Source of the DNA: a virus
Lineage: Duplodnaviria > Caudoviricetes
IMG/VR virus record: IMGVR_UViG_3300016649_000355
Length of the DNA: 64,000 bases
Direction: 5' to 3' (one strand)
Each line of letters starts with the position of its first letter. Position 1 is the stretch's first letter. Below are positions 12,589 to 51,215 of this stretch, piece by piece. Under the pieces are notes generated by a model, which was not told the DNA's origin, ran no database searches, and saw nothing but the letters and a program-made list of their open reading frames with translations. The position numbers were made by a program, and so were the translations under genes.

Positions 12589-13131
12589 ATGAAAATATTA
12601 TTTGAAGGTTTAGATTATCTTGACATGGTAAACCAAATTGAACCATTGTTATCTGTCGATGAATATGTTGCCAAAATGGGCAAAGATAGCGATATTGTTA
12701 CATTGGCATTTACTGTAAAATCGGAATTAGCAGGAAGAGATTTAGTAGACTGGTTTGAGAGGGGCTATGATTTCGTTTTAGATGCAAGCCTTAGTGATGG
12801 AGAAGTTAAACCGGGAAAATATTTAGTTTTTGTTGAAATGAATCGTAGATCATCGGTGCCTGAAAGAATAGAGGAATTACTTACTGATTTGAAAACTCTT
12901 ACTGATATAAAACCCACTGAGTGGACTATAAGAGTAGGTGATGAAGAATATGATTTAGATATAGAAGTTTTGAAAAAAGTTATCACAGTATCTCCACATG
13001 AGTATAGAATCGAAAAAGAAGGTCAAGAAGAATTAAATGAATATCGAGAAATTGCCGGACTTAAAACCAGTAATATATACCACAGCGATGATAAAGAAAT
13101 ACAAAATTTTAAAAACTTAGCGGGGTTATAA
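12589..13131 (+). CDS. Hypothetical late protein (possible head-associated)
   Basis: MKILFE leader; twice-repeated ..AGL C-terminal motif. Confidence 0.6.
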   Translation: MKILFEGLDYLDMVNQIEPLLSVDEYVAKMGKDSDIVTLAFTVKSELAGRDLVDWFERGYDFVLDASLSDGEVKPGKYLVFVEMNRRSSVPERIEELLTDLKTLTDIKPTEWTIRVGDEEYDLDIEVLKKVITVSPHEYRIEKEGQEELNEYREIAGLKTSNIYHSDDKEIQNFKNLAGL

Positions 13132-17407: not shown

Positions 17408-17572
17408 ATGGCAAAAATTGTTGAAGATGTAGTAGTAATAAAATTCAGTAAACTAGTCAAAGATGATCAGGATGTATCTAGTATTGTTACTACAGATACA
17501 CAGCAGGCCCTTGAGCAAGTAGCACAAGAGTTAGCAGGTGAGTCGGTGATCGTAGAGGTAGTCAAGGCATGA
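17408..17572 (+). CDS. Small hypothetical late protein (54 aa; absent from ORF track)
   Basis: TAAATA at 17381, SD GGAG, ATGA overlap with next gene; MAKIVEDVVVIKFSKLVKD... Confidence 0.7.
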   Translation: MAKIVEDVVVIKFSKLVKDDQDVSSIVTTDTQQALEQVAQELAGESVIVEVVKA

Positions 17573-17958
17573 GCCAGACTACTACACTAATTTTGTTATC
17601 AGAGACTAATTGGAATAGTAATATTGCCAACGGCAATTCATATACAGTAACCGGTAACAGTCAGCCTGCTGCTGCATATTATCTAGGCAATCAGGATCTA
17701 CAAACAGTGGCATTAAAAGTTACTAATTGTGTGGGCAACATCGTGATCGAAGCAAGTTTAGCAACAAGTCCCACTGAAACAGATTGGTTCGATGTTTATA
17801 AATTAGTTGCTAATGCAAATGCAACACCCAATACTGCCCCTCAAATTGCAAGTAATGCAAGTGTATATACAAACATAGAAGGTAATTTTGTTTACATGAG
17901 AGCCAAAGTAGAAGATTTTGCACAGGGTGGGGTGCAGTATATAAAATTGAGTTATTGA
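17569..17958 (+). CDS. Hypothetical, probable virion beta-sandwich protein
   Basis: Late operon; GNIVIEASLA...WFDV...GNFVYMRAKV pattern. Confidence 0.55.
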   Translation: MSQTTTLILLSETNWNSNIANGNSYTVTGNSQPAAAYYLGNQDLQTVALKVTNCVGNIVIEASLATSPTETDWFDVYKLVANANATPNTAPQIASNASVYTNIEGNFVYMRAKVEDFAQGGVQYIKLSY

Positions 17959-17959
17959 T

Positions 17960-18793
17960 ATGGAAACCATTGCAATATATCCGGGAAGATTTCATCCCTT
18001 CCATAAGGGCCATGCTGAAAGCTTTAAACAAATGGCACAAGAATTTGGGCCTAATAATACATATCTTGCGATAAGCGCAAAACAAGAACAGCCCAAAAGT
18101 CCTTTCAGTGCAGGTGATCGCGCAAAGATGGCAATGGCATTAGGTATACCAAAAGAAAATATCATCAGCGTCAACAACACATACGGCGGTGATGAGTATA
18201 TTCAAAGATTCAAAAAAGCAGGAATCGATCCTGATAACACTATATTAGTTTTAGGTGTTAGCAAGAAAGATATGGGATCCGATCCAAGATTTACCTTTGA
18301 ACCAAAGAAAGATGGATCGATGTCGTATCTACAACCCTATCGCAAAGGTCCGCAAGAACCCATGACCAAGCATGCCTACATAGTTTCTACTGATGTTGCT
18401 GAATTTCCAATCGCAGGCGAGGTCGTGCGCGATGCATCGAAGATACGGGATATGTATAAGCAGGGTGATGATCAACTTAAATCAAAAATATTGACAGATT
18501 TATATGGATCAAAAGCTGCCAAATTAATCAAACCAATTTTCGATCAAAATCTAACTGTCAATGAAGCGATCACTATTCCAAAATTAAATAAGATAGATTT
18601 ATACTATAAACCCATTGGCAGGGAAGAGATCAAAACAGTTTTCAAAAATTTGGATTACAATATGCTTGATAAAATGCTAAAAGCCATCAAGCAAAAACAC
18701 GGCATAGACGCATCAAAATTTTTCTGGGTACCTGCAGGACAGAAACCCACTACAACACTAGAAGAATCTATTGATTATCTAGAAGAAAAATAA
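17960..18793 (+). CDS. HxGH nucleotidyl/cytidylyltransferase-like protein
   Basis: IAIYPGRFHPFHKGH motif; C-terminal VNE/LEE linkers. Confidence 0.75.
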   Translation: METIAIYPGRFHPFHKGHAESFKQMAQEFGPNNTYLAISAKQEQPKSPFSAGDRAKMAMALGIPKENIISVNNTYGGDEYIQRFKKAGIDPDNTILVLGVSKKDMGSDPRFTFEPKKDGSMSYLQPYRKGPQEPMTKHAYIVSTDVAEFPIAGEVVRDASKIRDMYKQGDDQLKSKILTDLYGSKAAKLIKPIFDQNLTVNEAITIPKLNKIDLYYKPIGREEIKTVFKNLDYNMLDKMLKAIKQKHGIDASKFFWVPAGQKPTTTLEESIDYLEEK

Positions 18794-18844
18794 TTCGACA
18801 CACTCCTCATTCAGTAAATATATTTACATTTTAGTGAGGAACAC

Positions 18845-19768
18845 ATGCCGCGTAAACCAAAAGAAGACAAAAAAGTACCTGTAGAACAGGTAAAAGAAGT
18901 TTTACAAGAGATCAAAGAGACTCCTGCAACTAACAGCGAACAACAGGTTGTAGCTCAAACCCAAGAAAATCAACAACCACAGCAAGGACAGGTTCAGGTC
19001 AATGTAGACTTCTTGCGCACAACAAGAGTTCACATCGCTATGCCTTGTTATGGTGGAATGTTGACTGAATCAACTTTCATGAGTTTCATCAAGTGGGCAA
19101 ATACTGCCCGTCAATTAGGTATTGATTGGACATTGGAAACAATGGTTAACGAATCATTGATTAGCCGCGCAAGAAACACGCTAACTGCTAAATTCCTTGA
19201 TATGCCCGATGCTACACACTTGTTCTTTGTTGATGCTGATATTGGTTGGGAGCCATGGCACTTATTGGTTCTATTGAACCGCGACAAAGATGTTATCGCA
19301 GGTTTATATCCCATGAAGACCATGCCAATCAAGTGGGTTGTCAATGGTTTCGACGGTGCAGAAGAAGGTCCTGATGGCTTACAAGAGGTAAGCAAAGCAG
19401 GTACAGGTTTCTTATTGATGAAGAAACATGTGTTTGAAAAGATGAATAGTCACCCTGCTGTGAAGCAGTACAAGAACGATATCGGACTTGATCCTAAGTA
19501 TGATCAGTATCTAAAGACTTATTTTGATACAGCAGTCCGTCAAAATCGTTACTATAGTGAAGACTGGACATTTTGCGAGAACTGGCGTGATCTAGGTGGT
19601 CGTATCTGGGTCGATAAGCGTGTATTACTACGCCATAGTGGTAGCTATGTTTTCTGTATGGAAAATCAACAGCACTTAATGAACACGATCGGACCTATGT
19701 ACATCAATGAACAAAAGCAAAAAGGCTTTAAGTTAGTTGATCAAAATGGGAATGAAATAGCTGTTTAA
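18845..19768 (+). CDS. GT-A fold glycosyltransferase-like protein
   Basis: IAMPCYGG, ESLISRARN, LFFVDADIGW, GTGFLLM, SEDWTFC. Confidence 0.75.
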   Translation: MPRKPKEDKKVPVEQVKEVLQEIKETPATNSEQQVVAQTQENQQPQQGQVQVNVDFLRTTRVHIAMPCYGGMLTESTFMSFIKWANTARQLGIDWTLETMVNESLISRARNTLTAKFLDMPDATHLFFVDADIGWEPWHLLVLLNRDKDVIAGLYPMKTMPIKWVVNGFDGAEEGPDGLQEVSKAGTGFLLMKKHVFEKMNSHPAVKQYKNDIGLDPKYDQYLKTYFDTAVRQNRYYSEDWTFCENWRDLGGRIWVDKRVLLRHSGSYVFCMENQQHLMNTIGPMYINEQKQKGFKLVDQNGNEIAV

Positions 19769-19771
19769 AAC

Positions 19772-19795
19772 AAAGCCCCGAAAGGGGCTTTTTTG
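19772..19795 (+). terminator. Rho-independent terminator
   Basis: AAAGCCCC-GAAA-GGGGCTTT followed by a T run. Confidence 0.9.
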
Positions 19796-19823
19796 TTTAT
19801 GTAGTATTACAAATAAATACTAT

Positions 19824-21677
19824 ATGGACATAAAAGAATTAGAATCTTTCAAGCTTTCAGATGCGATAAAATTTCACGACCGTTTAAATCCTAGATTATG
19901 GCGTGGTAATAAACTACTGCCTGAAGTCAAAAAACAATTAGAGTTGATCGCTGACGATTTCATCACAGAATTAGGTATCTCAGGACTTAATGTAGAAGAC
20001 ATAACATTGTCCGGATCTAACGCAGCATATACCTATACACCAAATAGCGATCTCGATCTACACATACTTGTAGACATGAATAAATTGAAGAACGATGAAG
20101 TTTATCGTGAATTATTCCAAGCTAAGAAAACATTGTACAATGACTCACATGATATAAAGATTCATGGAGTTCCCGTAGAATTATATGTGCAGGATACTAA
20201 TGAACCTGTAAAAAGTTTAGGCGAGTATAGTTTATTGCGTGATGAGTGGATTAAGATTCCTAAAAAAAGAAAAGCAGAGTTCGATCAACAAGCCGCAAGA
20301 TTGAAATATGAGAAATTAGAATCATTGATACACAATACCATGAAATCTAAAAAGGCAGAAAAGATCGATGAATTATTAAAGACTATCAAACGATATAGAC
20401 AAGCAGGATTAGACAAGGCGGGTGAGTTCAGTCCAGAAAACTTAGCATACAAAGCGTTGAGGAACAAGGGTTATATACAAAAGTTATATGATCTAAGAAA
20501 TATATTACATACCAAAGAACTGAGTATAGAAAATATATATGTAAAAGAAGATTATCATCCTAATGCTAAACCACGCGGATCCGAGTATGAAAAAGATAAT
20601 GTTATAACAGAAGAGGCTTGGCTCGATCAACTTGTTAAAGATTTAAAAAATAAAGATAAAGATAAAACATATGAATTAACTGATGCTATCGAAGACTGGC
20701 ATACTATGAACGAAACTGTGAATAGCGTAGATGTCATACTAGCCAGTAATGAAGCAAAACCATTTAAAACACCTCCCAATAATATCAAAATACTTTATAG
20801 GGCAATCGTACCTAAAAACCGTGATATCAATTCAATCAAATCAAATGGAAAGATCGTTGCCTTCGCTACTGATATCAACGGCGCACATGAATTTATGCGA
20901 TCAATAGATGTTATGCAAAGATATGTGATCATCAAGAAAGAATTCAGAAGACAAGATTTTGTATTAGATTATACTAGTTTCTATGAAACATATGATACAG
21001 ATAGACCAGGATCACGATATATCAGCGAACATGAAGTGTGGATGAAGAATACTCCATATTATAGATCAGCCAAGAAAGATGAGATAGTCTATGACAGTGA
21101 TAAAGATGAGAATTTAAATGAAGTTTCAGGATCTTTACAGAATATAAATCAAGATAATGAGAATGGAAGTTTAGAAGGATATGTGGTAGATACTGATCAA
21201 CCGCAGTTATTTAATTACTTACAAAGTCAAGGTGCTGACCCTATAATAGCAAAAAAGATAGCAAAAAAGTTTAAAAGAATCGGTATCATTCGCAATATGT
21301 ATGTTGATGAAGAATTCAGAAATCAAGGCTTAGGGAGTGATTTAATTAGCGATGCGATCAATGATGCATTTCTTGAAGGTGCTCAGGCTATCTTATTAGT
21401 CAGTGATCAAGGTGAGAGTAACGAATTTGATTTGACTAAATGGTATCAAAATTTTGGTTTTAAGAAAATTGGTATGGCAGGCACTGATCCTGTGATGCTA
21501 ATGACTAAACAAATTAATGAAGTCTCGGGATATATTCCAAGCGAAAAACAAAAGAATGATCCACGATTCAGCAATGCCCTGACTATAGATGTCAAACCCA
21601 ACAGCATTAAAAAGAATGCTAAGGCATTTGGGTTCGACATCAGTAGAGCAGGTATACCACCATTATTGAGGAAATAA
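19824..21677 (+). CDS. Multidomain protein: Pol-beta-type nucleotidyltransferase + ART-like module + GNAT acetyltransferase
   Basis: LSGSNA...SDLDLH (NTase); ILYRA..AFAT..SEHEV (ART-like); MYVDEEFRNQGLG...WYQNFGF (GNAT). Confidence 0.7.
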   Translation: MDIKELESFKLSDAIKFHDRLNPRLWRGNKLLPEVKKQLELIADDFITELGISGLNVEDITLSGSNAAYTYTPNSDLDLHILVDMNKLKNDEVYRELFQAKKTLYNDSHDIKIHGVPVELYVQDTNEPVKSLGEYSLLRDEWIKIPKKRKAEFDQQAARLKYEKLESLIHNTMKSKKAEKIDELLKTIKRYRQAGLDKAGEFSPENLAYKALRNKGYIQKLYDLRNILHTKELSIENIYVKEDYHPNAKPRGSEYEKDNVITEEAWLDQLVKDLKNKDKDKTYELTDAIEDWHTMNETVNSVDVILASNEAKPFKTPPNNIKILYRAIVPKNRDINSIKSNGKIVAFATDINGAHEFMRSIDVMQRYVIIKKEFRRQDFVLDYTSFYETYDTDRPGSRYISEHEVWMKNTPYYRSAKKDEIVYDSDKDENLNEVSGSLQNINQDNENGSLEGYVVDTDQPQLFNYLQSQGADPIIAKKIAKKFKRIGIIRNMYVDEEFRNQGLGSDLISDAINDAFLEGAQAILLVSDQGESNEFDLTKWYQNFGFKKIGMAGTDPVMLMTKQINEVSGYIPSEKQKNDPRFSNALTIDVKPNSIKKNAKAFGFDISRAGIPPLLRK

Positions 21678-21678
21678 A

Positions 21679-22422
21679 ATGGAATTACGAGGAGTAAACA
21701 TAACCAATTTAAATATAGTAACCAGTCCCGGGGTAACACCTCCGCCCTCACCAGTGACCACTGGTTTAGTTTTATATTACGATCCAAGCAATAGTTCAAG
21801 TTATTCTGGTAGTGGCACAACAGTCAATAGTCTTGTAAGTCCTAATCTGACAGGTACTATGACTAATATAACTTATACCAGTCCTTACTTTAGTTATAAT
21901 GGTACAAGTTCTACAGTTTCAATAGCAGATAGTGCATCATTAGAACCAGGCTCAGGTGACTTTACTATTGAGGCATGGGTCTATTATACCACTATCACAG
22001 GTAGTAGTCGTGTGATCATGGGCAAAACTAACGGCGGTCTTGCAGCAGATTGGGGATATGGATTGAGAACAGGCAGCAACGGAGCAACTTTCTTTGAAGT
22101 AGGCAACGGAACAACATCAATTCCATCATCTAATTTCACTGCTAGTACTGGACAATGGTATCAGGTAGTGGGTGTATGGACTAATGTAGCATCAAACTCT
22201 ATTGCTCTATATCGGAATGGCACACTCATTGGCAGCAATAGTCATTCATTTGCCAGCGTGAAAGATACCACTAGTCCACTATATCTTGGATCATTCAATG
22301 GTGGTCAATTTTCACAATGGTTGAACGGTCGCACAGGCATCATAAGATACTATAATACTGCACTATCTGGCGCAGATGTATTGCAGAATTTCAACGCAAA
22401 TAAAGCATTATACGGTTTGTAA
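21679..22422 (+). CDS. LamG/concanavalin-A-like lectin domain protein
   Basis: DFTIEAWVY, WYQVVGVW, LYRNG, IRYYNTALS. Confidence 0.8.
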   Translation: MELRGVNITNLNIVTSPGVTPPPSPVTTGLVLYYDPSNSSSYSGSGTTVNSLVSPNLTGTMTNITYTSPYFSYNGTSSTVSIADSASLEPGSGDFTIEAWVYYTTITGSSRVIMGKTNGGLAADWGYGLRTGSNGATFFEVGNGTTSIPSSNFTASTGQWYQVVGVWTNVASNSIALYRNGTLIGSNSHSFASVKDTTSPLYLGSFNGGQFSQWLNGRTGIIRYYNTALSGADVLQNFNANKALYGL

Positions 22423-22460
22423 TAAATCTGATAAATAGTATATAACCACGGAATCGTATC

Positions 22461-23474
22461 ATGAAAATCAATCAAATCACTGAATCAACAACCGCAGGAT
22501 CTATAGCTACAGTTGAAGGGGGTCAGGGCCAAACTCAATATAGAAATCCTAGCATCTATGGATTAACATCCGGTGAGTCTATGCTTAAAGGCAAAAAGAC
22601 TAAAAAGAAATTCGCAAATAGCCTCAATGAGGGCAAAGTCAAAGAACTCATGATGGATTTAGCTAATCCCCCCCGTGGATTGAGTGATGAAGAATTCAAA
22701 AAAGTTTACAAGATGACAAAACAAGAAGCAAGACAACTGATGAAAGTTAACGAACAAGAAGTCAATGAAGCAGATTTGATATTAGTTCCTGGCCAGGGTC
22801 ATAGAATGAAGCCTGGCTTCATCGCTAGAGACATGGATAGAACTGATCGTGAGATAGAGATGGCAAGCGGTGATTTATATCAGGCGGCAAAAAATGCTAA
22901 AATGATCTATGACATGATCAAAGACATTCCCGAAGAGCGTGGATTAGAAGGATGGGTTCAGGAAAAGATCACTAAAGCAGCAGACTATCTAAACACTGTC
23001 CGTGAATACATAGAACAGAAAAGAATGGCAAATGAGAACGGCGGGGTCATCGCAGGATTTGGAATCGCAGAAACGGCTGAGAAAGTATTAAATGACGGCA
23101 TGAAGAATCTCAAGGCAATACACGCTGCAATTGAAAAGGGCGGTGATGCATTGTTTACATTTAATGGTAAATTCAAGGATGTACCTAGCGAGTATTTAAG
23201 GGCATTGCGCGGTACTTATACTGCATCATTGAAAAATGATAGACAACAAGATATGTTAAATATTCTAGGTGATGAAAACAAATTCAACAGATTAATGCAA
23301 CGATTAGACGATGAATTATTTGCTAAGTATCGTGATGTAAGCGAGAGAAAAAAGAATCTTTATCCGATAGGCATGGCACAGGCGATGAAGTCTACAGGTG
23401 ACAAGCCTCCCCTAGAGAAATCAACCATTGTTAAAGCACATGATATCGCTAGATCAATACAGCGCAAGGGTTAA
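22461..23474 (+). CDS. Mosaic putative internal head protein
   Basis: MKINQITE leader; several xNE linkers; GLEGWVQEKITKAADYL module. Confidence 0.6.
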   Translation: MKINQITESTTAGSIATVEGGQGQTQYRNPSIYGLTSGESMLKGKKTKKKFANSLNEGKVKELMMDLANPPRGLSDEEFKKVYKMTKQEARQLMKVNEQEVNEADLILVPGQGHRMKPGFIARDMDRTDREIEMASGDLYQAAKNAKMIYDMIKDIPEERGLEGWVQEKITKAADYLNTVREYIEQKRMANENGGVIAGFGIAETAEKVLNDGMKNLKAIHAAIEKGGDALFTFNGKFKDVPSEYLRALRGTYTASLKNDRQQDMLNILGDENKFNRLMQRLDDELFAKYRDVSERKKNLYPIGMAQAMKSTGDKPPLEKSTIVKAHDIARSIQRKG

Positions 23475-23476
23475 TC

Positions 23477-26254
23477 ATGAGCAAGATCATAGAAGGCATA
23501 CAGTTATCAGAGAAGAAAAAGAAGCCAAAGCCAACCAGCCCCGAAAAATGGTCTAGAGCTAAAGCAAAAGCCCGAAGCAAGTTCGATGTATATCCTTCAG
23601 CATATGCTAATGCTTATGCTGCTAAAGAATACAAAAAAATGGGCGGTGGCTGGAGAATGGGCGAAAGCACTGAAGAAGTTGATGAAAGTGCATTACAGGC
23701 ATATCTAGGTAATAAAAAATATGGTAAAGACGGCATGAATGCTCTGAGAAGGGCAGGCCGTGAAGGTGCTAGCAGAGAACAAATGGCAAAAATTCGGGAC
23801 AGATATAATAAGTTGGACGAGGAAATAATCACACAAAAAACGATACACGATTTAGCAGATAGCAGAGGAATCAAATGGGACAATGAACCCAGTTTTTTGA
23901 GATTGACCAAAAGGCTGACAGGCAAAGAACATCTAGATCAACTTAATCAAGAAGAGTTGATAAAAATCAAAAAATATCTTGAAAATCAAGGTGTGGCGGA
24001 AGGCTTAACGGAAGCTAGAGACAGTTTGTTTGCCTTTGTGAAGCGACATTTTCCAACTTGGCCTGACTATGTGTTGAAAGACTTCTTGTATTCACAAGCC
24101 AAGGGCATTCGTGATCAGGCAGAGTTAGATGATTTTCTTAAAAGAAACAAACAAGACTTTGGCGATTGTAAATGGACACTAACTAAATTGCCCATAACCT
24201 TTGATATCTTTACACCCAAGACTCAGCGTATGCTTGCCAGTAGAGAAGGCGGTAGTTCTAATCCTTTTCAAGTACCGCGTGATGCTGAAAGACACGCATT
24301 GCAATCACAAATGATACAGCAAAAGGGTGTGAGTGCAGAACCAATTATTGTTGCCAAATTGTCCAACGGCTATGATTTGATCGAAGGTTGGCATAGAACT
24401 ATTCAGCATTTGAAGGCATTCCCTCAAGGATACACTGGTCCTGCTTGGGTATGCACCGGAGCCACATACAAAAGTGAAAGTGTCAGGCAAGGTGTGGCGG
24501 AAGACTTGTTAGCAGAGATGGATAAAAGTGCTCCGCAACCTGGTCGTGATGGTCGAGTAAGTCACAGCACCTATGGATCCAGAGATAAAGGTGGTAGTAA
24601 AGGACCTGAAAAAGAAGCCAAACCAATCACAGCAAAAAAAGCTAAACAAGCCGCACTTGATATACTGAAGAAACAAGGTGTGGCGGAAGGCTCATTAGAT
24701 GAAATCAACCGTAGAGGATTCTTGAAAGGCTTAGGTGCGGCGGCTGTGGCAGGTGCGGCTGGTGGTGCTAAGGCTGATAGATTTTGGCAACAAGATGAAC
24801 TAACAAAACAATTTAAAGGCCAAATGACTTCTGAAACATTTAATGGAGCAGTTATACATTGGGATGAAGAACGAAAGATTGCTAGTCTAGCATTAACTCA
24901 ACCTACTAATTTTAGTATTAATAATGTTAAACAGAATAGATTATATTTTCCAAAGTTTACATCAACTAACTTTATTATAAAAATAGGCGAAAATTCTCCA
25001 TTAAATGGTACCGGAACTCCTTATCAATTTCCTTTAAGGCAGTTAGGTGATTATGAAGGTAACGGATTAATAATTTTACGCGGCAATCAATTTACTAAGG
25101 TTAGAGAAGATTTTATCAATGCAGATAAAGTTCTCATCAGAGTAGAGGTCGATGGCCTTCCAACTACAATGACATTTCATGACAATCTAGGATACATTCA
25201 GCAAAGACAGACACAACGAAAACAACCAATTTTAGATAAAATTTATCAAGAAGAAAAAAAAGGTAGCACTGTGTCTGGGTTTCATGGAATATATTCTGCT
25301 ATTCAATTAAGATCAATACTAGAACCCTTTAAAGATCAAATTCCTGGACAGTTTGAACTGTTGGATCAGGAAATTAATACTTTACTTTCTAACACACAAG
25401 GACACCAGATTGCTAAAGACATTGAAGAACAAATAAAAAAAGATAAATCTCTTAAAGACCTTATTAAAAGTGACGAAAAATATAAACATCTGTTAGTCAG
25501 CGATGCTGAGACTGCTAATCGTTGGCTCGCATCAGTTTACGGAAAGGTAATGATAAGATTAAAAGAATATAACACCATGCTGAGTCAGATTAAAGAAAGC
25601 GTTGAGCAAGGTGTCTCGGAAGGCTCATTAGATGAAAATTGGAAAAATAAACTAGCTGCTGGGGCATTATCCGCTGCAATGGGATTAGGCGCGATGGGAG
25701 CAGCCAATGCTCAGAATGTAAAACAAACTGATCTAGGAAATGACTTTGTATCTACCTCGATAGAAGTTGCCGGTCACAATTTAAATGCTGTATATGATGA
25801 TGTGACTAAAACATATTTCACGCTCAACAAGAATCCAAATACTGGTTATTCAATATACAAGACTCCGGCCCGTTATATAGCAATTAAAAATGGAAAAGTA
25901 GAACCAATGTCAAAACTTGGTCCAAAAACACTTGACGCAATGAGTAAAGCAGGATTAGAAAATGATGTAAAAGAAGATACCACCATGCGATTCGCAGCAG
26001 AAAAATTACCGGCACAAAATCCCTACGGTGGAGTAAAGGATAGACAATTTCGTGGCGCGATAGCAGAGACAGAAGCAGTGAATCGCAATGACGGTGATGG
26101 CTGGCGCTGGTATGAACCCCGCGAACAAGAACAATTAGATGAATTGAAATGCTGGCCCGGTTACACTAGGGTCAAGGGAGTGCCTGCAGGCGCAGTTGGT
26201 AGCTGCAAAAAGAAGACCAAAGAAAGCTCTATCATGAAGGGCTTGCAGAAATGA
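23477..26254 (+). CDS. Mosaic polyprotein (basic module, ParB-like module, Tat- and Sec-like signal-bearing modules)
   Basis: QGV(A/S)E linkers; PIIV...YDLIEGWHR (ParB-like); NRRGFLK (Tat motif). Confidence 0.65.
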   Translation: MSKIIEGIQLSEKKKKPKPTSPEKWSRAKAKARSKFDVYPSAYANAYAAKEYKKMGGGWRMGESTEEVDESALQAYLGNKKYGKDGMNALRRAGREGASREQMAKIRDRYNKLDEEIITQKTIHDLADSRGIKWDNEPSFLRLTKRLTGKEHLDQLNQEELIKIKKYLENQGVAEGLTEARDSLFAFVKRHFPTWPDYVLKDFLYSQAKGIRDQAELDDFLKRNKQDFGDCKWTLTKLPITFDIFTPKTQRMLASREGGSSNPFQVPRDAERHALQSQMIQQKGVSAEPIIVAKLSNGYDLIEGWHRTIQHLKAFPQGYTGPAWVCTGATYKSESVRQGVAEDLLAEMDKSAPQPGRDGRVSHSTYGSRDKGGSKGPEKEAKPITAKKAKQAALDILKKQGVAEGSLDEINRRGFLKGLGAAAVAGAAGGAKADRFWQQDELTKQFKGQMTSETFNGAVIHWDEERKIASLALTQPTNFSINNVKQNRLYFPKFTSTNFIIKIGENSPLNGTGTPYQFPLRQLGDYEGNGLIILRGNQFTKVREDFINADKVLIRVEVDGLPTTMTFHDNLGYIQQRQTQRKQPILDKIYQEEKKGSTVSGFHGIYSAIQLRSILEPFKDQIPGQFELLDQEINTLLSNTQGHQIAKDIEEQIKKDKSLKDLIKSDEKYKHLLVSDAETANRWLASVYGKVMIRLKEYNTMLSQIKESVEQGVSEGSLDENWKNKLAAGALSAAMGLGAMGAANAQNVKQTDLGNDFVSTSIEVAGHNLNAVYDDVTKTYFTLNKNPNTGYSIYKTPARYIAIKNGKVEPMSKLGPKTLDAMSKAGLENDVKEDTTMRFAAEKLPAQNPYGGVKDRQFRGAIAETEAVNRNDGDGWRWYEPREQEQLDELKCWPGYTRVKGVPAGAVGSCKKKTKESSIMKGLQK
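23987..24006 (+). repeat. Linker repeat copy 1 (QGVAEG)
   Basis: CAAGGTGTGGCGGAAGGCTT. Confidence 0.9.
24488..24505 (+). repeat. Linker repeat copy 2 (QGVAED)
   Basis: CAAGGTGTGGCGGAAGAC. Confidence 0.9.
24674..24704 (+). repeat. Linker repeat copy 3 (QGVAEGSLDE)
   Basis: CAAGGTGTGGCGGAAGGCTCATTAGATGAAA. Confidence 0.9.
25607..25637 (+). repeat. Linker repeat copy 4 (QGVSEGSLDE)
   Basis: CAAGGTGTCTCGGAAGGCTCATTAGATGAAA; 29/31 identical to copy 3. Confidence 0.9.
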
Positions 26255-26655
26255 GAGACTTGCTTGACATATTAGAAGCAGTTGAGAAAGGTTGCCCTCC
26301 CGCCACACAGAATATCGATCTCAACTTGCGCAATAGGCAAAAAGCCATCGATGAATATCATTATGGTCCACTAAATCCCAATGAACCCAACGATGAGTAT
26401 TGGCAAGAACTAGCAGATAAATGGAATACCGATGACATCGAAAGCGTGAAAAAGAATCGTTGCGGAAATTGTGCTGCATTTGACATAAGCGAGGATATGT
26501 TAGATTGTATAGCCAAAGGTATAGGCAGCGAGCCGGGAAGTGACCCACATGATACTATAGACGCCGGACATCTTGGATATTGTAAATTCTTGAAATTCAA
26601 ATGCGCAGCCAAAAGAACATGTGATGCCTGGGTAGAAGGTGGACCAATAACATGA
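26251..26655 (+). CDS. Cys-rich hypothetical protein, possible internal head protein
   Basis: MRDLLDILE leader; CGNC...C...C....TC pattern. Confidence 0.6.
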   Translation: MRDLLDILEAVEKGCPPATQNIDLNLRNRQKAIDEYHYGPLNPNEPNDEYWQELADKWNTDDIESVKKNRCGNCAAFDISEDMLDCIAKGIGSEPGSDPHDTIDAGHLGYCKFLKFKCAAKRTCDAWVEGGPIT

Positions 26656-27980
26656 GAGCAGATGAATTTATAAGTGAAGGCTCTTATCAAGGTGGGCTAC
26701 GCAAGTGGTTTAAAGAAAAGTGGGTAAATCTAGCTAAGAAGAAAAAGGGCGGTGGGTATGAACAATGTGGTTCTAGCGGTGACACCAAGGGATATGCGAA
26801 GTGTGTACCAGCAGCCAAAGCTGCAAGAATGTCAGACAAAGAAGAAAAGTCAGCTATCAATAGGAAGCGTTCAGCACAGCGCAAAGCAGGTAGACCCGGC
26901 AAACGATCCGGGGGTAAAGGCAAAACTCCAATCTTTGTCAAGACAAAGGTAAAAGAGGGCACCGATCAAGAGTTTTATACAGGTGGGGCATTAGGCTTGC
27001 CCTATCCTGGTACATATGAGCAAGAGAATGAACCGTTTAAAACTAAAGGTCAAAGAAGGATGGGTACATTGACCACAGAAGAAAGATATAAAGGCAATCT
27101 AGGATTAATGGAGTTGATAGCTTTCTTCAAGCAACATCCCGAACTATTGAAACAATTCAATGAGATTAAAAAAGAATATGGTGCTGAAAAATCATTGGAA
27201 TTCGCGTTACAACATATCAATAAAACATTAGAACCAGTATTGCAGGAAGGCATCAATGATCCATCAATTTTCAAGGTAGTGTTCGTTGTGGGAGGCCCGG
27301 GCAGCGGAAAAAGTTATGTATCTAGGCAGCTTGGATTAAATGCTATGGGATTAGTAACAATCAACAGCGACCATGCTTTTGAATATTTGATGCAAAAACA
27401 GGGCCTCGACTTGAAAATGCCACCAGAGGAAGAAATAGAACGAGACATAGTTCGAAATAGGGCGAAAGAAATAGTCAATAAAAAATCTGATTTAGCGATA
27501 GATGGAAGACTAGGATTACATATAGATGGTACTGGTTCTGATTTCACAAAGGTACAAAATCTAAAAAATAATTTTGACATGTTGGGCTACGATAGTTATC
27601 TGATTATTGTCAATACAAAGCTCGATGTGGCAAGATCGAGAAATCAATCAAGAAAAAGAAGTGTGCCAAATGATCTTTTGACTAAACGCTGGCGTGATGT
27701 GCAGAATAATATTGGTCGTTTCGCAGAGATATTTCCAAGATTCAGCATCATCGACAACAGTGGCGATATAAATAATACCGATTCACAGATCAACAAAGTA
27801 TATACAAGATTAGTTAAATTTTTAAACGAACCCCCCACAAAACCTATTGCTAGAAAATGGATAGAAGATCATAAATCTCAGGTGAACGAAAAGTGGTCAG
27901 AAAAATATAAGCGCAGCATAGATTGTAGTAATCCAAAAGGATTTAGCCAGAGGGCACATTGTCAAGGACGGAAAAAGTAA
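26652..27980 (+). CDS. Mosaic protein with P-loop kinase (zeta-toxin/AAA_33-like) module
   Basis: MRADEFISE leader; basic Cys module; VGGPGSGKS, IDGTG, ARSRNQSR. Confidence 0.7.
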   Translation: MRADEFISEGSYQGGLRKWFKEKWVNLAKKKKGGGYEQCGSSGDTKGYAKCVPAAKAARMSDKEEKSAINRKRSAQRKAGRPGKRSGGKGKTPIFVKTKVKEGTDQEFYTGGALGLPYPGTYEQENEPFKTKGQRRMGTLTTEERYKGNLGLMELIAFFKQHPELLKQFNEIKKEYGAEKSLEFALQHINKTLEPVLQEGINDPSIFKVVFVVGGPGSGKSYVSRQLGLNAMGLVTINSDHAFEYLMQKQGLDLKMPPEEEIERDIVRNRAKEIVNKKSDLAIDGRLGLHIDGTGSDFTKVQNLKNNFDMLGYDSYLIIVNTKLDVARSRNQSRKRSVPNDLLTKRWRDVQNNIGRFAEIFPRFSIIDNSGDINNTDSQINKVYTRLVKFLNEPPTKPIARKWIEDHKSQVNEKWSEKYKRSIDCSNPKGFSQRAHCQGRKK

Positions 27981-28423
27981 TGTTATCAGATACACTTAAA
28001 ACACTATTAGCAACAAGTTATGGATTTGCTATCAAGGCACAGAACTTTCACTGGAATGTTGAAGGTCCAGACTTTCCACAGTATCATGAATTCTTTGGAG
28101 AAATATATCAAGAAGTTTTCGATAATGCCATCGATCAAACTGCTGAGTATATAAGAACGCTTGGAAGCTATACTCCGGGTAGTTTCACGAGGTTGCACGA
28201 ATTATGCCAGATAGAAGATCAACTCAAGATTCCTAGGGCAGAACTGATGTTCGCTGAATTAGAGCAAGACAATCAAAAGTTATTAGACATGTTGAAGCAA
28301 GCCTTTCACATAGCTGAAGAAAGTGATGAGCAAGGCATAGCAAATTTCATCGCCGAGAGAATCGATGCGCATGCCAAACATGGCTGGATGTTGAGAGCAA
28401 CATTAAATAAAGCTAGGGCATAA
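27980..28423 (+). CDS. dps: Dps/ferritin-like protein
   Basis: NFHWNVEGPDFPQYHEFF, DQTAEYIRTLG, HAKHGWML. Confidence 0.9.
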   Translation: MLSDTLKTLLATSYGFAIKAQNFHWNVEGPDFPQYHEFFGEIYQEVFDNAIDQTAEYIRTLGSYTPGSFTRLHELCQIEDQLKIPRAELMFAELEQDNQKLLDMLKQAFHIAEESDEQGIANFIAERIDAHAKHGWMLRATLNKARA

Positions 28424-28437
28424 GATAAATATTCTCT

Positions 28438-29124
28438 ATGCGTATTATAGAGATATGTGAGTCTATAGAAGAGGCTGAGAAAGACACGGATGAGTCTAAC
28501 GAGATCGTAAAAGTTTTTAAACAAAACGGATACAATCAGGTAGGTTCAGGTGCTGACGCTACTGTATGGGCTAAAGATGCGGGCAGCGTGATAAAGATAT
28601 TGATGCCTGACAGCGAGGATATAACAAAAGCAGCATTTACTTTCAAGAAGTTCTATACATTTTGTAAGAACAATGAGAGTGTTGCCTGCTTGCCTAAATT
28701 TATTCCTATACAAGGAAAAGACTATCAATCTTTTCAGCTTGGTACTAAAAAGTATTTGCAAATATCAATGGAAGAGTTGAGACCTATTCCAACACTTTCG
28801 TTTGATGAAGGTATAGTGTGGTTTTTTAGTGATTTTGTGATACATGATACCCGTTGGGATGATGTCAATAAAAAATTATTGAATGCAAGGATCTGGGCAG
28901 ATCACAACTGGAAGCAATCTGAACAGTATGCTGAACAATGGAAAAATCTTACTATAGAAAAAAGAATGGAATATCGGATATTATACATGACTATGAATCT
29001 GTTATACAAGACAGGTAAGATCAATAAATTAGGTTGGGATCTGCATACTGAAAATGCCATGATGCGCGGTGATACAATCGTTATCACTGACCCATGGTTT
29101 GAAAGATATTCAGGATCATTATGA
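28438..29124 (+). CDS. Protein kinase-like fold protein
   Basis: VGSGADATVW, VIKIL, ISMEEL, WDLHTEN, ITDPW. Confidence 0.7.
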   Translation: MRIIEICESIEEAEKDTDESNEIVKVFKQNGYNQVGSGADATVWAKDAGSVIKILMPDSEDITKAAFTFKKFYTFCKNNESVACLPKFIPIQGKDYQSFQLGTKKYLQISMEELRPIPTLSFDEGIVWFFSDFVIHDTRWDDVNKKLLNARIWADHNWKQSEQYAEQWKNLTIEKRMEYRILYMTMNLLYKTGKINKLGWDLHTENAMMRGDTIVITDPWFERYSGSL

Positions 29125-29654
29125 GAGTCAACGAAGCTAGCCCCGATACATTTGAAGGTAGTTTGAGTGATGATCAATTGATCAGCCGTTTATGGATGGC
29201 TAAACGATTGAATGACACCGGCATTCCCGTGAAAAAATGTGTAGTTCTAGGAAGCTGGTACGGCCTAGTTCCCTATATATTAAGAAAGATCAATCGCATC
29301 CCAACAATAGTGGCTATTGATGGAAATCAAAAATATATAGATGCTAGCAAGAAACTCAATCCACACATCAAGCATTTATGTAAAGATGTGAACGACATGC
29401 ATTATCATGGTGCTGATTGTGTGGTAAACCCCAGCATCAATAATATAGCGGGCACTAAATGGTATGAGAACATACCTATGGGCAAGTTATGTTTATTTCA
29501 GACTGAAGACATAGAAGTAGAAAAAAACTGTCCTTCTAATTTAGAAGAATTAAAAACTAAGTTCCCATTAAGTAAATACTTGTATGAAGGAACATTGAGT
29601 TGCAAAGATAAGGATGGGCCTTATACAAGAAGTATGATCATAGGAATAAAATGA
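29121..29654 (+). CDS. Class I SAM methyltransferase-like protein
   Basis: VVLGSWYG, VAIDGN, CKDVN Rossmann pattern. Confidence 0.55.
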   Translation: MRVNEASPDTFEGSLSDDQLISRLWMAKRLNDTGIPVKKCVVLGSWYGLVPYILRKINRIPTIVAIDGNQKYIDASKKLNPHIKHLCKDVNDMHYHGADCVVNPSINNIAGTKWYENIPMGKLCLFQTEDIEVEKNCPSNLEELKTKFPLSKYLYEGTLSCKDKDGPYTRSMIIGIK

Positions 29655-30361
29655 AATTATTTACTAATGGATGTAGTTGGACTTACGGAGGAGGCCTTGA
29701 TTTGGATCAGCCTTACCAAGAGGCTGAAAGATTAAAGGTTGTGTGGCCTCACCATTTGGGAAAGTTATTAAATACTGATCAGGTAGTAAATCTAGCAATG
29801 GGGTGCGGAAGTAATCAAAGAATGATAAGAACGACATTTGATTGGTTACTTACTCAAACAAAACAAGAACTCGCAGATACAATAGCAGTGATTCAATTTA
29901 CAGAACCTAGTAGATTTGAAATAAATTACGAAAATGACTGGTATAATTGCAAGATAGGATGTGTTACATTTGGAGACAATCGTGTAGCTAATACACATGA
30001 AGAAAATTTTAAAGTTCAGGAAATGTATAGTCTAGTAGAATCTAGATTTGTAACATACTCGGATGTAGAAGGTGACTACTCATTATTGTCTTCAGCTACA
30101 TCTATAGATAACTTATTTAAACAATTTCATTTAAAAGATTGGTATTTTTGGTCTTTTAGTAATGATTTCATGCGCAGTAAATATAAAGAGTATTATTGCA
30201 ATAATTTTAAAATAGTTGATAAACAATATATGACAGATTTATGGAAGTATTCAAGGGTAGGAATAAAATTTTTTAATCAAGAATTTGATCCACATCCTAG
30301 TATCGAGGGACATCGGCAAGTTGCAAACGCATTATTTCATGAAATGGGAACATACAAATGA
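29651..30361 (+). CDS. SGNH hydrolase-like protein (paralog family)
   Basis: TNGCSWTYG, NLAMGCGSN, HPSIEGH. Confidence 0.6.
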   Translation: MKLFTNGCSWTYGGGLDLDQPYQEAERLKVVWPHHLGKLLNTDQVVNLAMGCGSNQRMIRTTFDWLLTQTKQELADTIAVIQFTEPSRFEINYENDWYNCKIGCVTFGDNRVANTHEENFKVQEMYSLVESRFVTYSDVEGDYSLLSSATSIDNLFKQFHLKDWYFWSFSNDFMRSKYKEYYCNNFKIVDKQYMTDLWKYSRVGIKFFNQEFDPHPSIEGHRQVANALFHEMGTYK

Positions 30362-30789
30362 AAAAAATATTAGCAATAGTTTTACTATCACTAACCAGTA
30401 TCGCACACGCACAGAAACAGGGGGTAACATATGATGCACAAATTCTTAGGGTTAACGATGGAGATACGGTCGTTATTTCTGCTCCATTTTTACCTGCTCC
30501 GCTAAAACCAGAACTTGCCGTGAGAATATATGGGGTAGACACACCTGAAAAGGGTTTCCGCGCACAGTGTCCCCAAGAAGATGCTAGGGGAAAGGCTGCT
30601 AGTGAATTCACTAAGAAAGCGGTAGCCGGGGCGCAGAAAAGACAAGTTGTTTTAATGGACTGGGATAAGTTCGGCGGTCGCGTGTTAGGCGACATTATCT
30701 TAGATGGTGTGAGCCTTAGAGAAATGCTAATCAAAAATAACATGGCCCGAGCATACTTCGGCGAAGCGAAACAAAGCTGGTGCAATTGA
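30358..30789 (+). CDS. Secreted thermonuclease (SNase family)
   Basis: Signal peptide; RVNDGDT, RIYGVDTPE, DKFGGRVLG. Confidence 0.9.
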   Translation: MKKILAIVLLSLTSIAHAQKQGVTYDAQILRVNDGDTVVISAPFLPAPLKPELAVRIYGVDTPEKGFRAQCPQEDARGKAASEFTKKAVAGAQKRQVVLMDWDKFGGRVLGDIILDGVSLREMLIKNNMARAYFGEAKQSWCN

Positions 30790-30802
30790 TAAATATTTAA
30801 TC

Positions 30803-31498
30803 ATGCGAGCCACTGAGTTTTTAATAGAAAAAAATAGAAAAAGAAAGCGCACAAAATTGCGCAAATACTTTTTTCCTGGTTTTGCCTATTACGGAGGTTA
30901 CGGTGGTGAAGATTCAGGTGGTGATGGCGGAGGCGGAGAAAGCATGTATGAAAGTGCTGTCGATGAGCTAAAGCAGCAGCTACCATCACTTAAAAAACAT
31001 GACTATGATACAATCGATAGACTCATGAGAGGTATAGCGAAAAAACACAAGATCACAGGAAAAGCACTACATGATCTATTTGTTAACAAATATAAAAAGA
31101 CCCCGGATGACTGGATAAAAAATAAATTAGACGAACAGCTAGACCTTGATATGGTCGGGGAAGTGGAGAAATTCAGCGACTGGGCCTGTAAAAAATTGAA
31201 TGTACAGAACCAACCCAGGATCAATTTAAGTTACGATACAGAAGAGGCGCAGACAAATCATCACACCGGGGGGCATGTAATGGGTGACGATGAGATTTGG
31301 GTATACGCTAAAAATCGCAATTTAGTCGATATATTGAGGACTGTGTTCCATGAATTGGTTCATGTGAGGCAGGAAGAATTGAACATGATCAAGCATGGTT
31401 CAAGTTATCCCGGAAGCCCCATCGAAGCGATGGCAGACATGCTTGCGGGCAAATACATCAAGATTTACGGCAAAGATAATCCAAAAATATTCCAATAA
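30803..31498 (+). CDS. Mosaic protein with HExxH metallopeptidase-like module
   Basis: MRATEFLIE leader; Gly-rich linker; VFHELVHVRQ...EAMA. Confidence 0.6.
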   Translation: MRATEFLIEKNRKRKRTKLRKYFFPGFAYYGGYGGEDSGGDGGGGESMYESAVDELKQQLPSLKKHDYDTIDRLMRGIAKKHKITGKALHDLFVNKYKKTPDDWIKNKLDEQLDLDMVGEVEKFSDWACKKLNVQNQPRINLSYDTEEAQTNHHTGGHVMGDDEIWVYAKNRNLVDILRTVFHELVHVRQEELNMIKHGSSYPGSPIEAMADMLAGKYIKIYGKDNPKIFQ

Positions 31499-31552: not shown

Positions 31553-31813
31553 ATGTCTGAACGAACCTTTTCTGCCGAAGGCAAACTTAAACTTACCCAA
31601 TTAGTCAACGAAGGCATGTCAGTCATGCATGAGATCGAAACATTGCAGGGTGGATTGAATGATACGATCAAGGCAGTAGCAGAAGAAATGGAAATCAAAC
31701 CGAGTATTTTAAAGAAAGCCATCAAAATCGCATACAAATCTGGTCTAGGTCAGACCAACAAAGAACACGAAGAACTAAACACGATTCTGGAGACTGTTGG
31801 TAAGACCCTATGA
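31553..31813 (+). CDS. Small dsDNA-binding protein (T4 DsbA/GapR-like)
   Basis: SD GGAG; helical IKAVAEEMEIKPSILKKAIKIAY pattern; sigma70-like promoter at about 31503-31531. Confidence 0.5.
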   Translation: MSERTFSAEGKLKLTQLVNEGMSVMHEIETLQGGLNDTIKAVAEEMEIKPSILKKAIKIAYKSGLGQTNKEHEELNTILETVGKTL

Positions 31814-49755: not shown

Positions 49756-50067
49756 CTACTTATATACCTTTGATGAATTATAGTTAGGTTGTGTATCTAC
49801 AAATTCTGATCCTCCACCTGCACCAATAATACAGGCATAGTCATTGTCATACTCTACCATAGACCAAGTGTTTTTGTTTTGATTGACAAATAAAATAAAC
49901 TTACTACGGCTACTAACTCCCAACCAACTGGGAACTTCTTTATATTTTTGATTTGTCAGTAATGAAAAAACTCTTTCAGCTTTATCGCACACTACTTCTT
50001 TGTTCTCGATAGTAGGTTGTGCTAATGCGATGCCAGGAAATAATAGTATTAAGAGTTTTTTCATCAA
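49756..50067 (-). CDS. Secreted hypothetical protein
   Basis: Signal peptide MKKLLILLFPGIALA. Confidence 0.6.
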   Translation of the reverse strand: MMKKLLILLFPGIALAQPTIENKEVVCDKAERVFSLLTNQKYKEVPSWLGVSSRSKFILFVNQNKNTWSMVEYDNDYACIIGAGGGSEFVDTQPNYNSSKVYK

Positions 50068-51215
50068 TGTATCAACAATAGGCTGCTTAATACATCATTG
50101 CGGTTAGCAGCATCATCACCGTCACCTGGCTTCACGATAACATTCCACTTGCCTTTTGCTTCTGGATCTTTATCGACGGGTTTACGCATCATCTCATCAT
50201 AAGTGATCACTGATTCAGGGTTCAAACTATACTTGATAGCGATACGATCTTTAACAGCCTGTTGCGCTTGACTATTCTTGTATTGCCACTTACCACTCTC
50301 ATCTTTCTCTAATGCATCACTGAATAATTCTTTAGGAACTACACGACTGTTCTTAGTTTTGACGAAATCGATTTTCTTTTCTTGGCTAGTATGTGCGCCC
50401 TGGCTGAAGTTCATCTTGAAGTTATCTGGGCGCTCTGCTTGCGCTACTGAAGCCATTTTAGTGTAAGCATAAAAATCAACTTCAGGATGCTTTCTAGCGA
50501 CATCATAAGCCATGTCTAGGTATTGTGGGCTAAAGAAGTCACCTGCATCATGCCAGCGCACGACTACCTTAGTTCCCTTCTTCCCATATTTCTTTTCTGC
50601 TTGACCAATCTCTTCACTTAGTTTAGACATGAAGCCTTCTGGGTCATTGTATAAGAAGTTTAATAATTTAGTAGAACTCAATGAGCTTGCCTTCCACTGA
50701 ACATATCCACCTTTCATGGCGTAGCAGAATGTTTTGCATGCGCCAGCACCCGGGCAAGTATCGATAACAATGAATTCTCCAGTATCTTCATCCACTGCTA
50801 GACCTTTCAATGCGGGTAGACCCACATTGAAGAATATGCTGCTTGTGCCATCGCTGTGTTGCATCTTTTCGTTTTGCTTGAGTATCTTTACAGGACGCTC
50901 AGTAAAAGTCTGGCGTAACTTATCTAAGTCATACTTTTTACCTTCGTCATTGACGATTGGAATATTACCACCATGGATATATGGTCTTTGGAATTTGTCC
51001 TGTTTCTCTTTACTTTTACCCACAATTCTGTCAAGATAGCTTGTTAATTCATCTTGATCGAACTTACGGCTTGTGACACCACCCAATTTTGCTTCATCTA
51101 CTTCTTCGCCCTTGTTTTCGCTATCCACGAATTGATCAAGGGTCATCACTTTGAAATTCTTGCTAAATGGGCTAACACCTTCGGTTACTAATTTTATGAG
51201 TTTTCTGATGTCCAT
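50064..51215 (-). CDS. Phage Gp88-like Fe-S protein with internal-protein-like leader
   Basis: TCPGAGACKTFCYA, VRWHDAGDF, FYAYTK; leader MDIRKLIKLVTE. Confidence 0.7.
   Translation of the reverse strand: MDIRKLIKLVTEGVSPFSKNFKVMTLDQFVDSENKGEEVDEAKLGGVTSRKFDQDELTSYLDRIVGKSKEKQDKFQRPYIHGGNIPIVNDEGKKYDLDKLRQTFTERPVKILKQNEKMQHSDGTSSIFFNVGLPALKGLAVDEDTGEFIVIDTCPGAGACKTFCYAMKGGYVQWKASSLSSTKLLNFLYNDPEGFMSKLSEEIGQAEKKYGKKGTKVVVRWHDAGDFFSPQYLDMAYDVARKHPEVDFYAYTKMASVAQAERPDNFKMNFSQGAHTSQEKKIDFVKTKNSRVVPKELFSDALEKDESGKWQYKNSQAQQAVKDRIAIKYSLNPESVITYDEMMRKPVDKDPEAKGKWNVIVKPGDGDDAANRNDVLSSLLLIH

Follow-up and report, generated by a model that had tools for sequence, protein, structure and literature searches.

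Capsid-targeting-like leaders and hydrophobic-x-Glu junctions in a candidate cargo locus of an uncultured T4-related phage

Internal proteins of phage T4 (IPI, IPII and IPIII), like Alt, carry a short N-terminal propeptide that ends in L/I-x-Glu and is removed by gp21, which cleaves after L/I-x-E; the first 10 residues of IPIII suffice for packaging (PMC9026906). In the T4 record ipII and ipIII start with MKTYQEFIAE followed by A, just as a first-pass annotation of the DNA analyzed here had stated, and ipI starts with MKTFKEF and runs on to ITE, then A. In T4, replacing the Glu by Asp prevents processing while targeting persists. Here we describe a locus with similar leaders in a stretch of 64,000 nucleotides (the window) taken from IMG/VR virus record IMGVR_UViG_3300016649_000355 (Duplodnaviria; Caudoviricetes). 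Its core is a block of twelve genes at positions 19824-31498, eight of which encode proteins with a short N-terminal leader ending in hydrophobic-x-Glu. The leader-bearing genes of this block, together with two genes that start at 12589 and, on the minus strand, at 51215, probably encode cargo of the phage capsid.

As in T4, diverse and rapidly exchanged candidate cargo stands here behind a conserved tag and includes an ADP-ribosyltransferase (ART)-like enzyme, comparable to Alt. However, T4 cargo consists of small single proteins, whereas that of the window would be mostly enzymes and long polyproteins, the largest with 925 residues, that contain many internal cut sites. The window leaders are also one residue shorter and more varied, one junction, QGVAEG, is invariant as DNA, Tat or Sec signals are present on some modules, and the system is known from sequence alone. 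A second point of reference is provided by the polyvalent proteins, in which several unrelated effector domains share one polypeptide and for which delivery with the DNA and proteolytic release of the domains were predicted, as we propose for the window (Iyer, Burroughs, Anand, de Souza, Aravind 2017, PMC5512222). The 617-, 925- and 442-residue proteins of the window fall within the range of two to fifteen unrelated domains per polypeptide that characterizes this class, and the repertoires overlap in ART, GNAT, ParB/Srx, kinase, methyltransferase and zincin-like peptidase, of which ART and methyltransferase are leads only in the window. That study proposed autoprocessing by a built-in metallopeptidase; a targeting leader at the N-terminus and standard hydrophobic-x-Glu junctions are both absent from its description. 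In the window, by contrast, the peptidase has a gene of its own, and the match between the Kinase-PolyVal Pfam model and the 228-residue kinase (E 0.054, 13.9 bits) lies below the cut-off of 27. Agrobacterium phage Atu_ph07 encodes proteins with MRWxQLxE-type leaders (among gp53-gp65) that were detected in virions, one of them fused to a homologue of a window kinase; their ART-like domain has no sequence similarity to the 617-residue protein. In phiKZ-like giant phages (phiKZ, 201phi2-1, SPN3US), a gp21-related protease cuts head proteins after Glu at a three-residue motif, several times each, and a large protein mass is injected. An inner-body system of this type was considered and rejected for the window, as the motif there is S/A/G-x-Glu while here P3 is hydrophobic, and polymerase and synteny point to T4 relatives of the Atu_ph07/Rak2-like type. 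The phiKZ-like phages belong to a different lineage, and among their cargo is a virion RNA polymerase rather than shuffled cassettes of enzymes. On balance we favor the view, without being certain of it, that the system of the window is a variation on the T4 internal-protein and polyvalent-protein theme.

The genes and junctions of the block, followed by the relevant features outside it, are given below (arrows mark putative cut sites).

19824..21677, plus strand: 617-residue polyprotein with leader MDIKE/LE; Pol-beta-type nucleotidyltransferase, ART-like module (~residues 255-430), GNAT and a short C-terminal module.
21679..22422, plus strand: LamG/concanavalin-like protein without leader (Pfam Laminin_G_3, E 5.5e-23).
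22461..23474, plus strand: 337-residue protein with leader MKINQITE, then S; homologues start with MRFKQIIE, MRFNQIVE, MKIDQIINE and MKIKTLLE.
23477..26254, plus strand: 925-residue polyprotein with leader MSKIIE, then G; at least six modules.
23987..24003, plus strand: QGVAEG junction, copy 1, followed by LTE↓A, directly before the ParB/Srx module.
24488..24503, plus strand: QGVAED junction, copy 2.
24674..24703, plus strand: QGVAEG-SLDE double junction (copy 3), immediately preceding the Tat-type signal.
25607..25636, plus strand: QGVSEG-SLDE double junction (copy 4), immediately preceding the Sec-type signal.
26251..26655, plus strand: 134-residue Cys-rich protein with leader MRDLLDILE, then A.
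26652..27980, plus strand: 442-residue protein with leader MRADEFISE, then G; DUF5872-like basic module, LQE↓G, P-loop kinase (Zeta/AAA_33) and C-terminal Cys motif (Pfam).
27959..28423, plus strand: Dps/ferritin-like protein without leader (Pfam Ferritin, E 6.8e-21).
28438..29124, plus strand: 228-residue T7 gp0.7-like protein kinase with leader MRIIEICE, then S (PHROG 15752, E 5.9e-9).
29121..29654, plus strand: 177-residue protein, probable class I SAM methyltransferase (a lead), with leader MRVNE, then A.
29651..30789, plus strand: DUF6071 protein and staphylococcal-type nuclease with its own signal peptide, no leader on either (Pfam).
30803..31498, plus strand: 231-residue protein with leader MRATEFLIE, a basic Gly-rich stretch, MYE↓S and two modules, the first helical, the second zincin-like with HExxH.
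12589..13131, plus strand, outside the block: 180-residue protein with leader MKILFE, then G (PHROG 13138, virion structural protein).
50064..51215, minus strand, outside the block: 383-residue protein with leader MDIRKLIKLVTE, then G.
17408..17569, plus strand: 53-residue open reading frame (ORF) starting with MAKIVE, preceded by an ATAAATA box; independent assemblies also have it as a called gene.

All ten leaders listed in the first-pass annotation were found again, with their starts at 19824, 22461, 23477, 26251, 26652, 28438, 29121, 30803, 12589 and 51215 (minus strand), and the internal LNE, VNE, VDE, LDE, VKE and LQE sites that it named are all present in window proteins. Within its proposed span, 17408-31498, the genes at 17408-19768 have no clear leader except for the 53-residue MAKIVE ORF. 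A leader was scored loosely as hydrophobic-x-E within the first 12 residues, i.e. M-x(1-9)-hydrophobic-x-Glu, the block leaders comprising 5-9 residues, or strictly, the Glu having to be followed by Gly, Ala or Ser. The loose motif is present in 8/12 block genes (19824-31498) as compared to 13/67 elsewhere in the window (Fisher p = 0.0019), which equals the 18% background of internal windows, and the strict motif in six of the twelve as compared to 3/67 (p = 2e-4; background 3.5%), with block limits that were set after the fact. Among the three strict hits outside the block, 12589 is homologous to an Atu_ph07 virion protein and 51215 (minus strand) lies behind an ATAAATA box. Taken with these two, the hydrophobic-x-Glu propeptide is present on eight block and two outside genes, MRVNE and some junctions having Val at P3. 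Two leaders, MRADEFISE and MRATEFLIE, possess the EF-[IL]-x-E core of T4 MKTYQEFIAE; since their codons differ, this likeness appears to be selected at the protein level. The remaining six block leaders have only the amphipathic pattern and the final hydrophobic-x-E in common with T4.

Leader and internal linker are interchangeable, which is the strongest result that sequence comparison provides. In the window, LQE↓G precedes the kinase module of the 442-residue protein; the module is a gene of its own starting MIPFILKE↓G in the T4-like pelagiphage HTVC008M and lies behind VTE↓G in Atu_ph07 gp53. Conversely, the 228-residue kinase has the leader MRIIEICE here and is fused behind VDE, LNE, LDE and LNE in four relatives. 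The ParB/Srx module, behind QGVAEG-LTE↓A in the window, carries the leader MRAHEFIVE in another locus (L133). In the 134-, 177-, 337- and 231-residue families a hydrophobic-x-Glu leader was found in all but one relative read, down to 30-55% identity: homologues start with MRDIINLLE, MRNFINLLE, MLRRLINIME and MRKFMTIVE (134 residues; in L102 the module is fused behind ...AVAE), with MRLYDLNE, MRVYDLYE and MKSRDLKE (177 residues), and among others with MRYTEFIIE, MRANEFLLE and MRAELLYE (231 residues). A 231-residue homologue in L181 has no leader and is fused behind VKE. The junctions of the 617-residue protein are LNE↓V (residue 433) and INE↓V (residue 566); a relative (L015) is devoid of the ART and GNAT modules, and in another (L141) GNAT ends in LNE and is fused to a kinase. 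The modules of the 925-residue protein include a small basic PSAYAN module, ParB/Srx, a module with a Tat-type signal, one with a Sec-type signal, and CWPGY. In five fusions, LSE, LTE or LDE and a run of Lys stand before the PSAYAN module, which in small phages occurs alone and without leader. The Tat-type signal (24701-24780) and the Sec-type signal (25637-25712) each lie directly behind an SLDE junction inside the protein. In P0005 the Tat-signal module is an independent protein with a Tat signal; each of five different fusions has x-L-x-E ahead of the module and keeps the full Tat signal. Thus, the same site opens a module wherever the module sits, as would be expected of a processing site.

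The two halves of the 231-residue protein, helical (SAVDEL) and HExxH, can be separated: relatives carry them within one ORF at distances of up to 1.9 kb, like the bookends of a polyprotein. They bracket other modules in L077 and L109, and modules such as ParB/Srx are inserted between them in this group of loci (among L077, L109, L014, L083 and L155).

Virion proteomics is available for a relative. The phage of the window is, by its gene content, T4-related: a family B DNA polymerase, a clamp loader and a GroES-like gene are present in the window, and an S77 protease in relatives. Its DNA polymerase (31810-34521) shares 47-49% identity with those of Sinorhizobium phage Phosso and Agrobacterium phage Atu_ph07 and 42-44% with those of Rak2-like giant phages. 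Judged by the polymerase (47% identity) and by synteny, Atu_ph07 is the nearest cultured relative. Its 214-242 kb stretch is colinear with the window, in inverted order, with clamp loader, GroES-like, DnaJ, ClpB and a small polymerase-adjacent gene in common, as well as homologues of the Atu_ph07 virion proteins gp305, gp306, gp290 and gp285. This stretch is one of three virion-gene clusters in Atu_ph07 (coding sequences 284-329), and the block falls at this place.

From purified Atu_ph07 particles 140 proteins were identified by electrospray ionization tandem mass spectrometry (Attai et al. 2018, Table S5; PMC6102473), of which we mapped 114 to ORFs by mass and order, with the gp numbering checked against the record. 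Leaders of the form M[RK]-x(1-7)-hydrophobic-x-Glu were detected in 20/114 virion proteins but only in 13/716 other ORFs (p = 1.5e-10), and enrichment persisted when alternative starts were allowed in the background (p = 1.3e-7). Some of these leaders are close to those of the window: virion proteins gp43, gp561 and gp672 start with MRLIDLLE (window, MRDLLDILE) and gp487 with MRYIELCE (window, MRIIEICE). The homologue of the window gene at 12589, gp305, opens with MKIVE and then G; its predicted mass is 27.33 kDa, and it was detected in gel band 12 of the virion. The neighboring number, gp306, is the homologue of the window gene at 12014. The kinase homologue gp53 has a predicted mass of 87 kDa, yet it peaks in the 18-24 kDa gel band; cutting at its three junctions would yield fragments of 27, 23, 14 and 22 kDa. 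In the proteome paper gp53-gp65 are classed as hypothetical structural proteins, leader and processing being unmentioned (PMC6102473).

Within Atu_ph07, positions 39484-50592 contain eleven tandem paralogues, gp53-gp63 (L002, L035), all with MRWxQLxE-type leaders and all in the published virion proteome. These paralogues display an R/S/E-like pattern (YRGM, SFICTT, EVW).

A further feature of the locus is the QGVAEG junction. One identical 17-mer encodes it in the window (3 copies), in L003 (3 copies) and in L015, and the same 17-mer occurs in at least 120 IMG/VR loci (L076-L195), among the matches listed always in frame, inside long ORFs and with unrelated flanks. Even in loci fetched by protein similarity, 8/8 GVAE tetrapeptides are coded GGT GTG GCG GAA, while GTG accounts for 21% of Val and GCG for 9% of Ala codons; the junction uses these minority codons almost without exception. 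Modules are gained, lost and reordered exactly at these junctions. These data point to an additional role of QGVAEG as an in-frame recombination or cassette joint at the DNA level. A search of the literature for QGVAEG or its DNA yielded no phage paper. Among the at least 120 loci listed, ORFs with a QGVAE junction start with a leader in 63/83 cases as compared to 218/720 other ORFs (p = 1e-15), many of these leaders being of the MRATEFIIE, MRAQEFITE or MRFNEITE type. This co-occurrence indicates that leader and junction belong to one system.

Proteins of the head core bear the same signature. In L197, one of the junction-bearing giant IMG/VR contigs that have an S77 match, the protease starts with MRGLIQE, an acidic core protein with MNKYEQLIE, and the scaffold has GIINE at residues 12-16; the Atu_ph07 protease starts with MSTKLTE, and adjoining head proteins carry ALLE↓G and IINE↓S. 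Cargo leaders therefore resemble head-core tags. A Peptidase_S77 gene is present in Atu_ph07 as well as in HTVC008M. A search for S77 in five smaller IMG/VR contigs gave no match.

With regard to timing, ATAAATA boxes were found at the following places.

12003, plus strand: ATAAATA box.
17380, plus strand: ATAAATA box.
19813..19819, plus strand: ATAAATA box, ending 4 nt ahead of the 617-residue gene's ATG.
22431, plus strand: ATAAATA box.
28425, plus strand: ATAAATA box.
30789, plus strand: ATAAATA box.
51244, minus strand: ATAAATA box.

These are the 7/21 boxes that lie within 35 nt upstream of a same-strand start, a space that makes up ~2% of the sequence. The distance from box start to ATG is 11-30 nt for the starts 12014, 17408, 19824, 22461, 28438, 30803 and 51215 (minus strand). 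Six of the seven box-preceded genes start with a leader, the remaining leader genes coming later in these operons. Upstream of 22461 and 51215 (minus strand) the 30 nt are nearly identical, the boxes starting 30 and 29 nt upstream, respectively. Replication genes are preceded by sigma-70-like promoters instead. A pelagiphage transcriptome paper (PMC12753301) does not cover HTVC008M.

From these observations we infer targeting, cleavage, injection and a host-directed role of the cargo in this phage, along the following lines. Cargo proteins would be made late. The leader, consisting of M, often R/K, and 3-8 further residues up to hydrophobic-x-Glu, would tie the precursor to the prohead core in the manner of a T4 capsid-targeting sequence. 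A T4-type S77 prohead protease would then clip the leader and cut the polyproteins at QGVAE↓G, SLDE↓, LQE↓G, LNE↓V and other sites, so that the head would hold free modules, i.e. the nucleotidyltransferase, the ART-like module, GNAT, two kinases, the methyltransferase-like protein, ParB/Srx, the zincin-like peptidase and small basic proteins. The freed modules would exit along with the DNA and be active early on in the next host, where the enzymes may serve host takeover or anti-defence. More speculatively, and in our judgment a possibility that is not favored, hundreds of uncultured aquatic T4-related phages might use a common cargo-loading grammar, in which the leader loads a polyprotein, the head protease cuts standard junctions and the DNA-fixed QGVAEG allows in-frame swaps; cleavage here might additionally unmask the Tat and Sec signals, and some injected modules might be re-exported to the periplasm of the new host.

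Other explanations of leaders and junctions were weighed against packaging. The polyproteins might be cut in the cytoplasm of the producing cell by the zincin-like or another phage protease, with modules acting late, some after Tat or Sec export, and the leader being the first cut site only. We regard this as rather improbable, notwithstanding several observations that agree with it: complete Tat and Sec signals lie directly behind junctions, the Tat module is an ordinary exported protein elsewhere, the block also contains a leaderless secreted nuclease, and the zincin-like HExxH protein closes the block and is part of the same polyprotein in relatives, which recalls the peptidase autoprocessing proposed for polyvalent proteins by Iyer et al. 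(PMC5512222). However, leader proteins of Atu_ph07 sit in the virion, head-core proteins have the same signature, the site fits the specificity of S77 proteases, which are known to be active inside proheads, and a cut site 5-9 residues from the N-terminus would be pointless without a targeting role.

Alternatively, the junctions and perhaps also the leaders could mainly be recombination joints for in-frame swaps between co-infecting phages, with no proteolysis and intact multidomain enzymes as products. The identical in-frame 17-mer in the window, L003, L015 and at least 120 IMG/VR loci, its minority codons and the module changes exactly at the junctions are what such joints would produce. In its pure form this explanation is nevertheless unlikely, and more so than cytoplasmic cutting, because most junctions and all leaders are not conserved at the DNA level: in the leaders and in junctions such as LQE, LNE, VKE and VTE, codons and sequence differ while hydrophobic-x-Glu is kept. 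Moreover, an internal Tat signal that remains intact in five fusions is sensible only if it becomes N-terminal, and Atu_ph07 gp53 runs at a quarter of its predicted size. The roles as recombination joint and as cut site are compatible with each other. Finally, the leaders might reflect chance or composition, namely Glu- and Ile/Leu-rich N-termini in an AT-rich genome, given that the loose motif is found in 18-20% of N-termini and internal windows. We consider this highly improbable: the rate in the block is 67% for the loose and 50% for the strict motif as compared to the 3.5% background of the latter, the site is kept in all but one homologue read, and the leader goes together with presence in the virion in Atu_ph07 and with the junction in IMG/VR.

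Several observations weigh against packaging as cargo and were taken into account in grading it. For this phage the evidence is limited to sequence, the virion mass spectrometry coming from the relative Atu_ph07, where 11 of the 20 leader-bearing virion proteins represent one ART-like paralogue family (MRWxQLxE), so that the count is inflated and its members are not fully independent. The leader motif is short, with an 18% background for its loose form, and relatives of the 617-residue protein start with MNIKELN or MNLKELN, so that only IKE or LKE is kept. Fixation of QGVAEG at silent sites leaves its conservation partly unexplained by a protease site, and with its internal Tat and Sec signals intact, the 925-residue protein agrees better with export from the producing cell than with capsid storage. 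No prohead protease is encoded in the 64-kb window, beyond which 0.7 kb at the end and fibre-like genes at the start were recovered; an S77 match was obtained in two of five giant IMG/VR contigs with the junction and in none of the other three. The T4 late box TATAAATA is not enriched in the window (4 seen, 8.5 expected), and the ATAAATA boxes at 12003, 19813, 28425 and 30789 end just 4-7 nt ahead of the ATG and no Shine-Dalgarno sequence is present, an arrangement suggestive of leaderless late mRNAs. Lastly, four block genes have no leader (LamG, Dps-like, DUF6071 and signal-peptide nuclease), and the candidate cargo is therefore confined to ~9.3 kb of leader-bearing genes. Hence, of the packaged-cargo locus put forward in the first-pass annotation, the reading of leaders and linkers as T4-type targeting and cut sites is supported by comparative evidence and the proteomics of a relative, but its extent of 14 kb had to be reduced.

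If packaging as described is true, capsid targeting, a principle that in T4 serves three small internal proteins, extends to ~9 kb of enzyme genes in a giant phage, and leaders and cut sites of natural origin become available for loading foreign proteins into phage heads. To our knowledge, the packaged and injected phage proteome is almost unknown outside T4, P1, N4 and phiKZ. It comprises the first proteins that the host cell meets and is a likely home of anti-defence and takeover enzymes; provided that the rules for leader and junction hold, it could be read from sequence for uncultured T4-related phages.

As to the identity of the modules, the earlier names stand for nucleotidyltransferase, GNAT, the two kinases, ParB/Srx and the zincin-like peptidase, whereas ART and methyltransferase are leads only. 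Sequence matches support the cytidylyltransferase-like gene (17960), GNAT, the Zeta/AAA_33 kinase and the T7 gp0.7-like kinase. In the 617-residue protein, Pfam GNAT (E 3.7e-9) and NTP_transf_2 (E 6.5e-4) as well as PHROG 36119 were matched. For the ParB/Srx module, a model with a predicted local distance difference test (pLDDT) score of 76 retrieved exclusively ParB or sulfiredoxin structures among the top 50 PDB hits, and EGWHR is invariant. The zincin-like module (pLDDT 85) matched Wss1, selecase and IrrE at weak E; residues H136, E137 and H140 of the 231-residue protein, which form the HExxH motif, are invariant in 19 homologues. ART folds were retrieved for the ART-like module at TM 0.4-0.53 on a low-confidence Atlas model, and an R, S/T, ExE-like pattern is present. 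BLASTP of the 617-residue protein against an Atu_ph07 ART-like paralogue gave nothing significant, and nothing was found with this protein in the Atu_ph07 and HTVC008M genomes; there being no sequence matches for the module, the ART call relies on the fold leads from the Atlas. The 177-residue protein has a top Atlas cluster named class I SAM methyltransferase (score 0.98). Pfam searches at E up to 5 yielded nothing usable for the 134-, 177- and 337-residue proteins, the ParB module and the ART module.

Several independent metagenome assemblies carry the block letter for letter, with identical gene calls. No match was obtained by megablast of the block against 50,697 phage records or by tblastn with the 925-residue protein. 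Just upstream of the block lie chaperone genes, GroES-like (8814-9176) as well as DnaJ and ClpB (13665-16752), and Atu_ph07 is alike at the syntenic place. The cytidylyltransferase-like gene (17960-18793) has no leader here; its L003 homologue (8933-10696) starts with MSLKQYIIE, and two QGVAEG junctions join it to a further module and ParB/Srx.

A basic module of ~50 residues (...DVYPSAYANAYAAKEYKKMGG..., 23500-23665) is 91-96% identical across many otherwise unrelated viral contigs (loci L004-L031); in small phages, the module forms a stand-alone protein of 49-67 residues. It might act as an internal protein that binds DNA. A second small cluster, on the minus strand at 49065-51957, repeats the make-up of the block's end and encodes the 383-residue leader protein, a small protein with a signal peptide, a paralogue of the DUF6071 gene at 29651-30361, and an SGNH-like protein.

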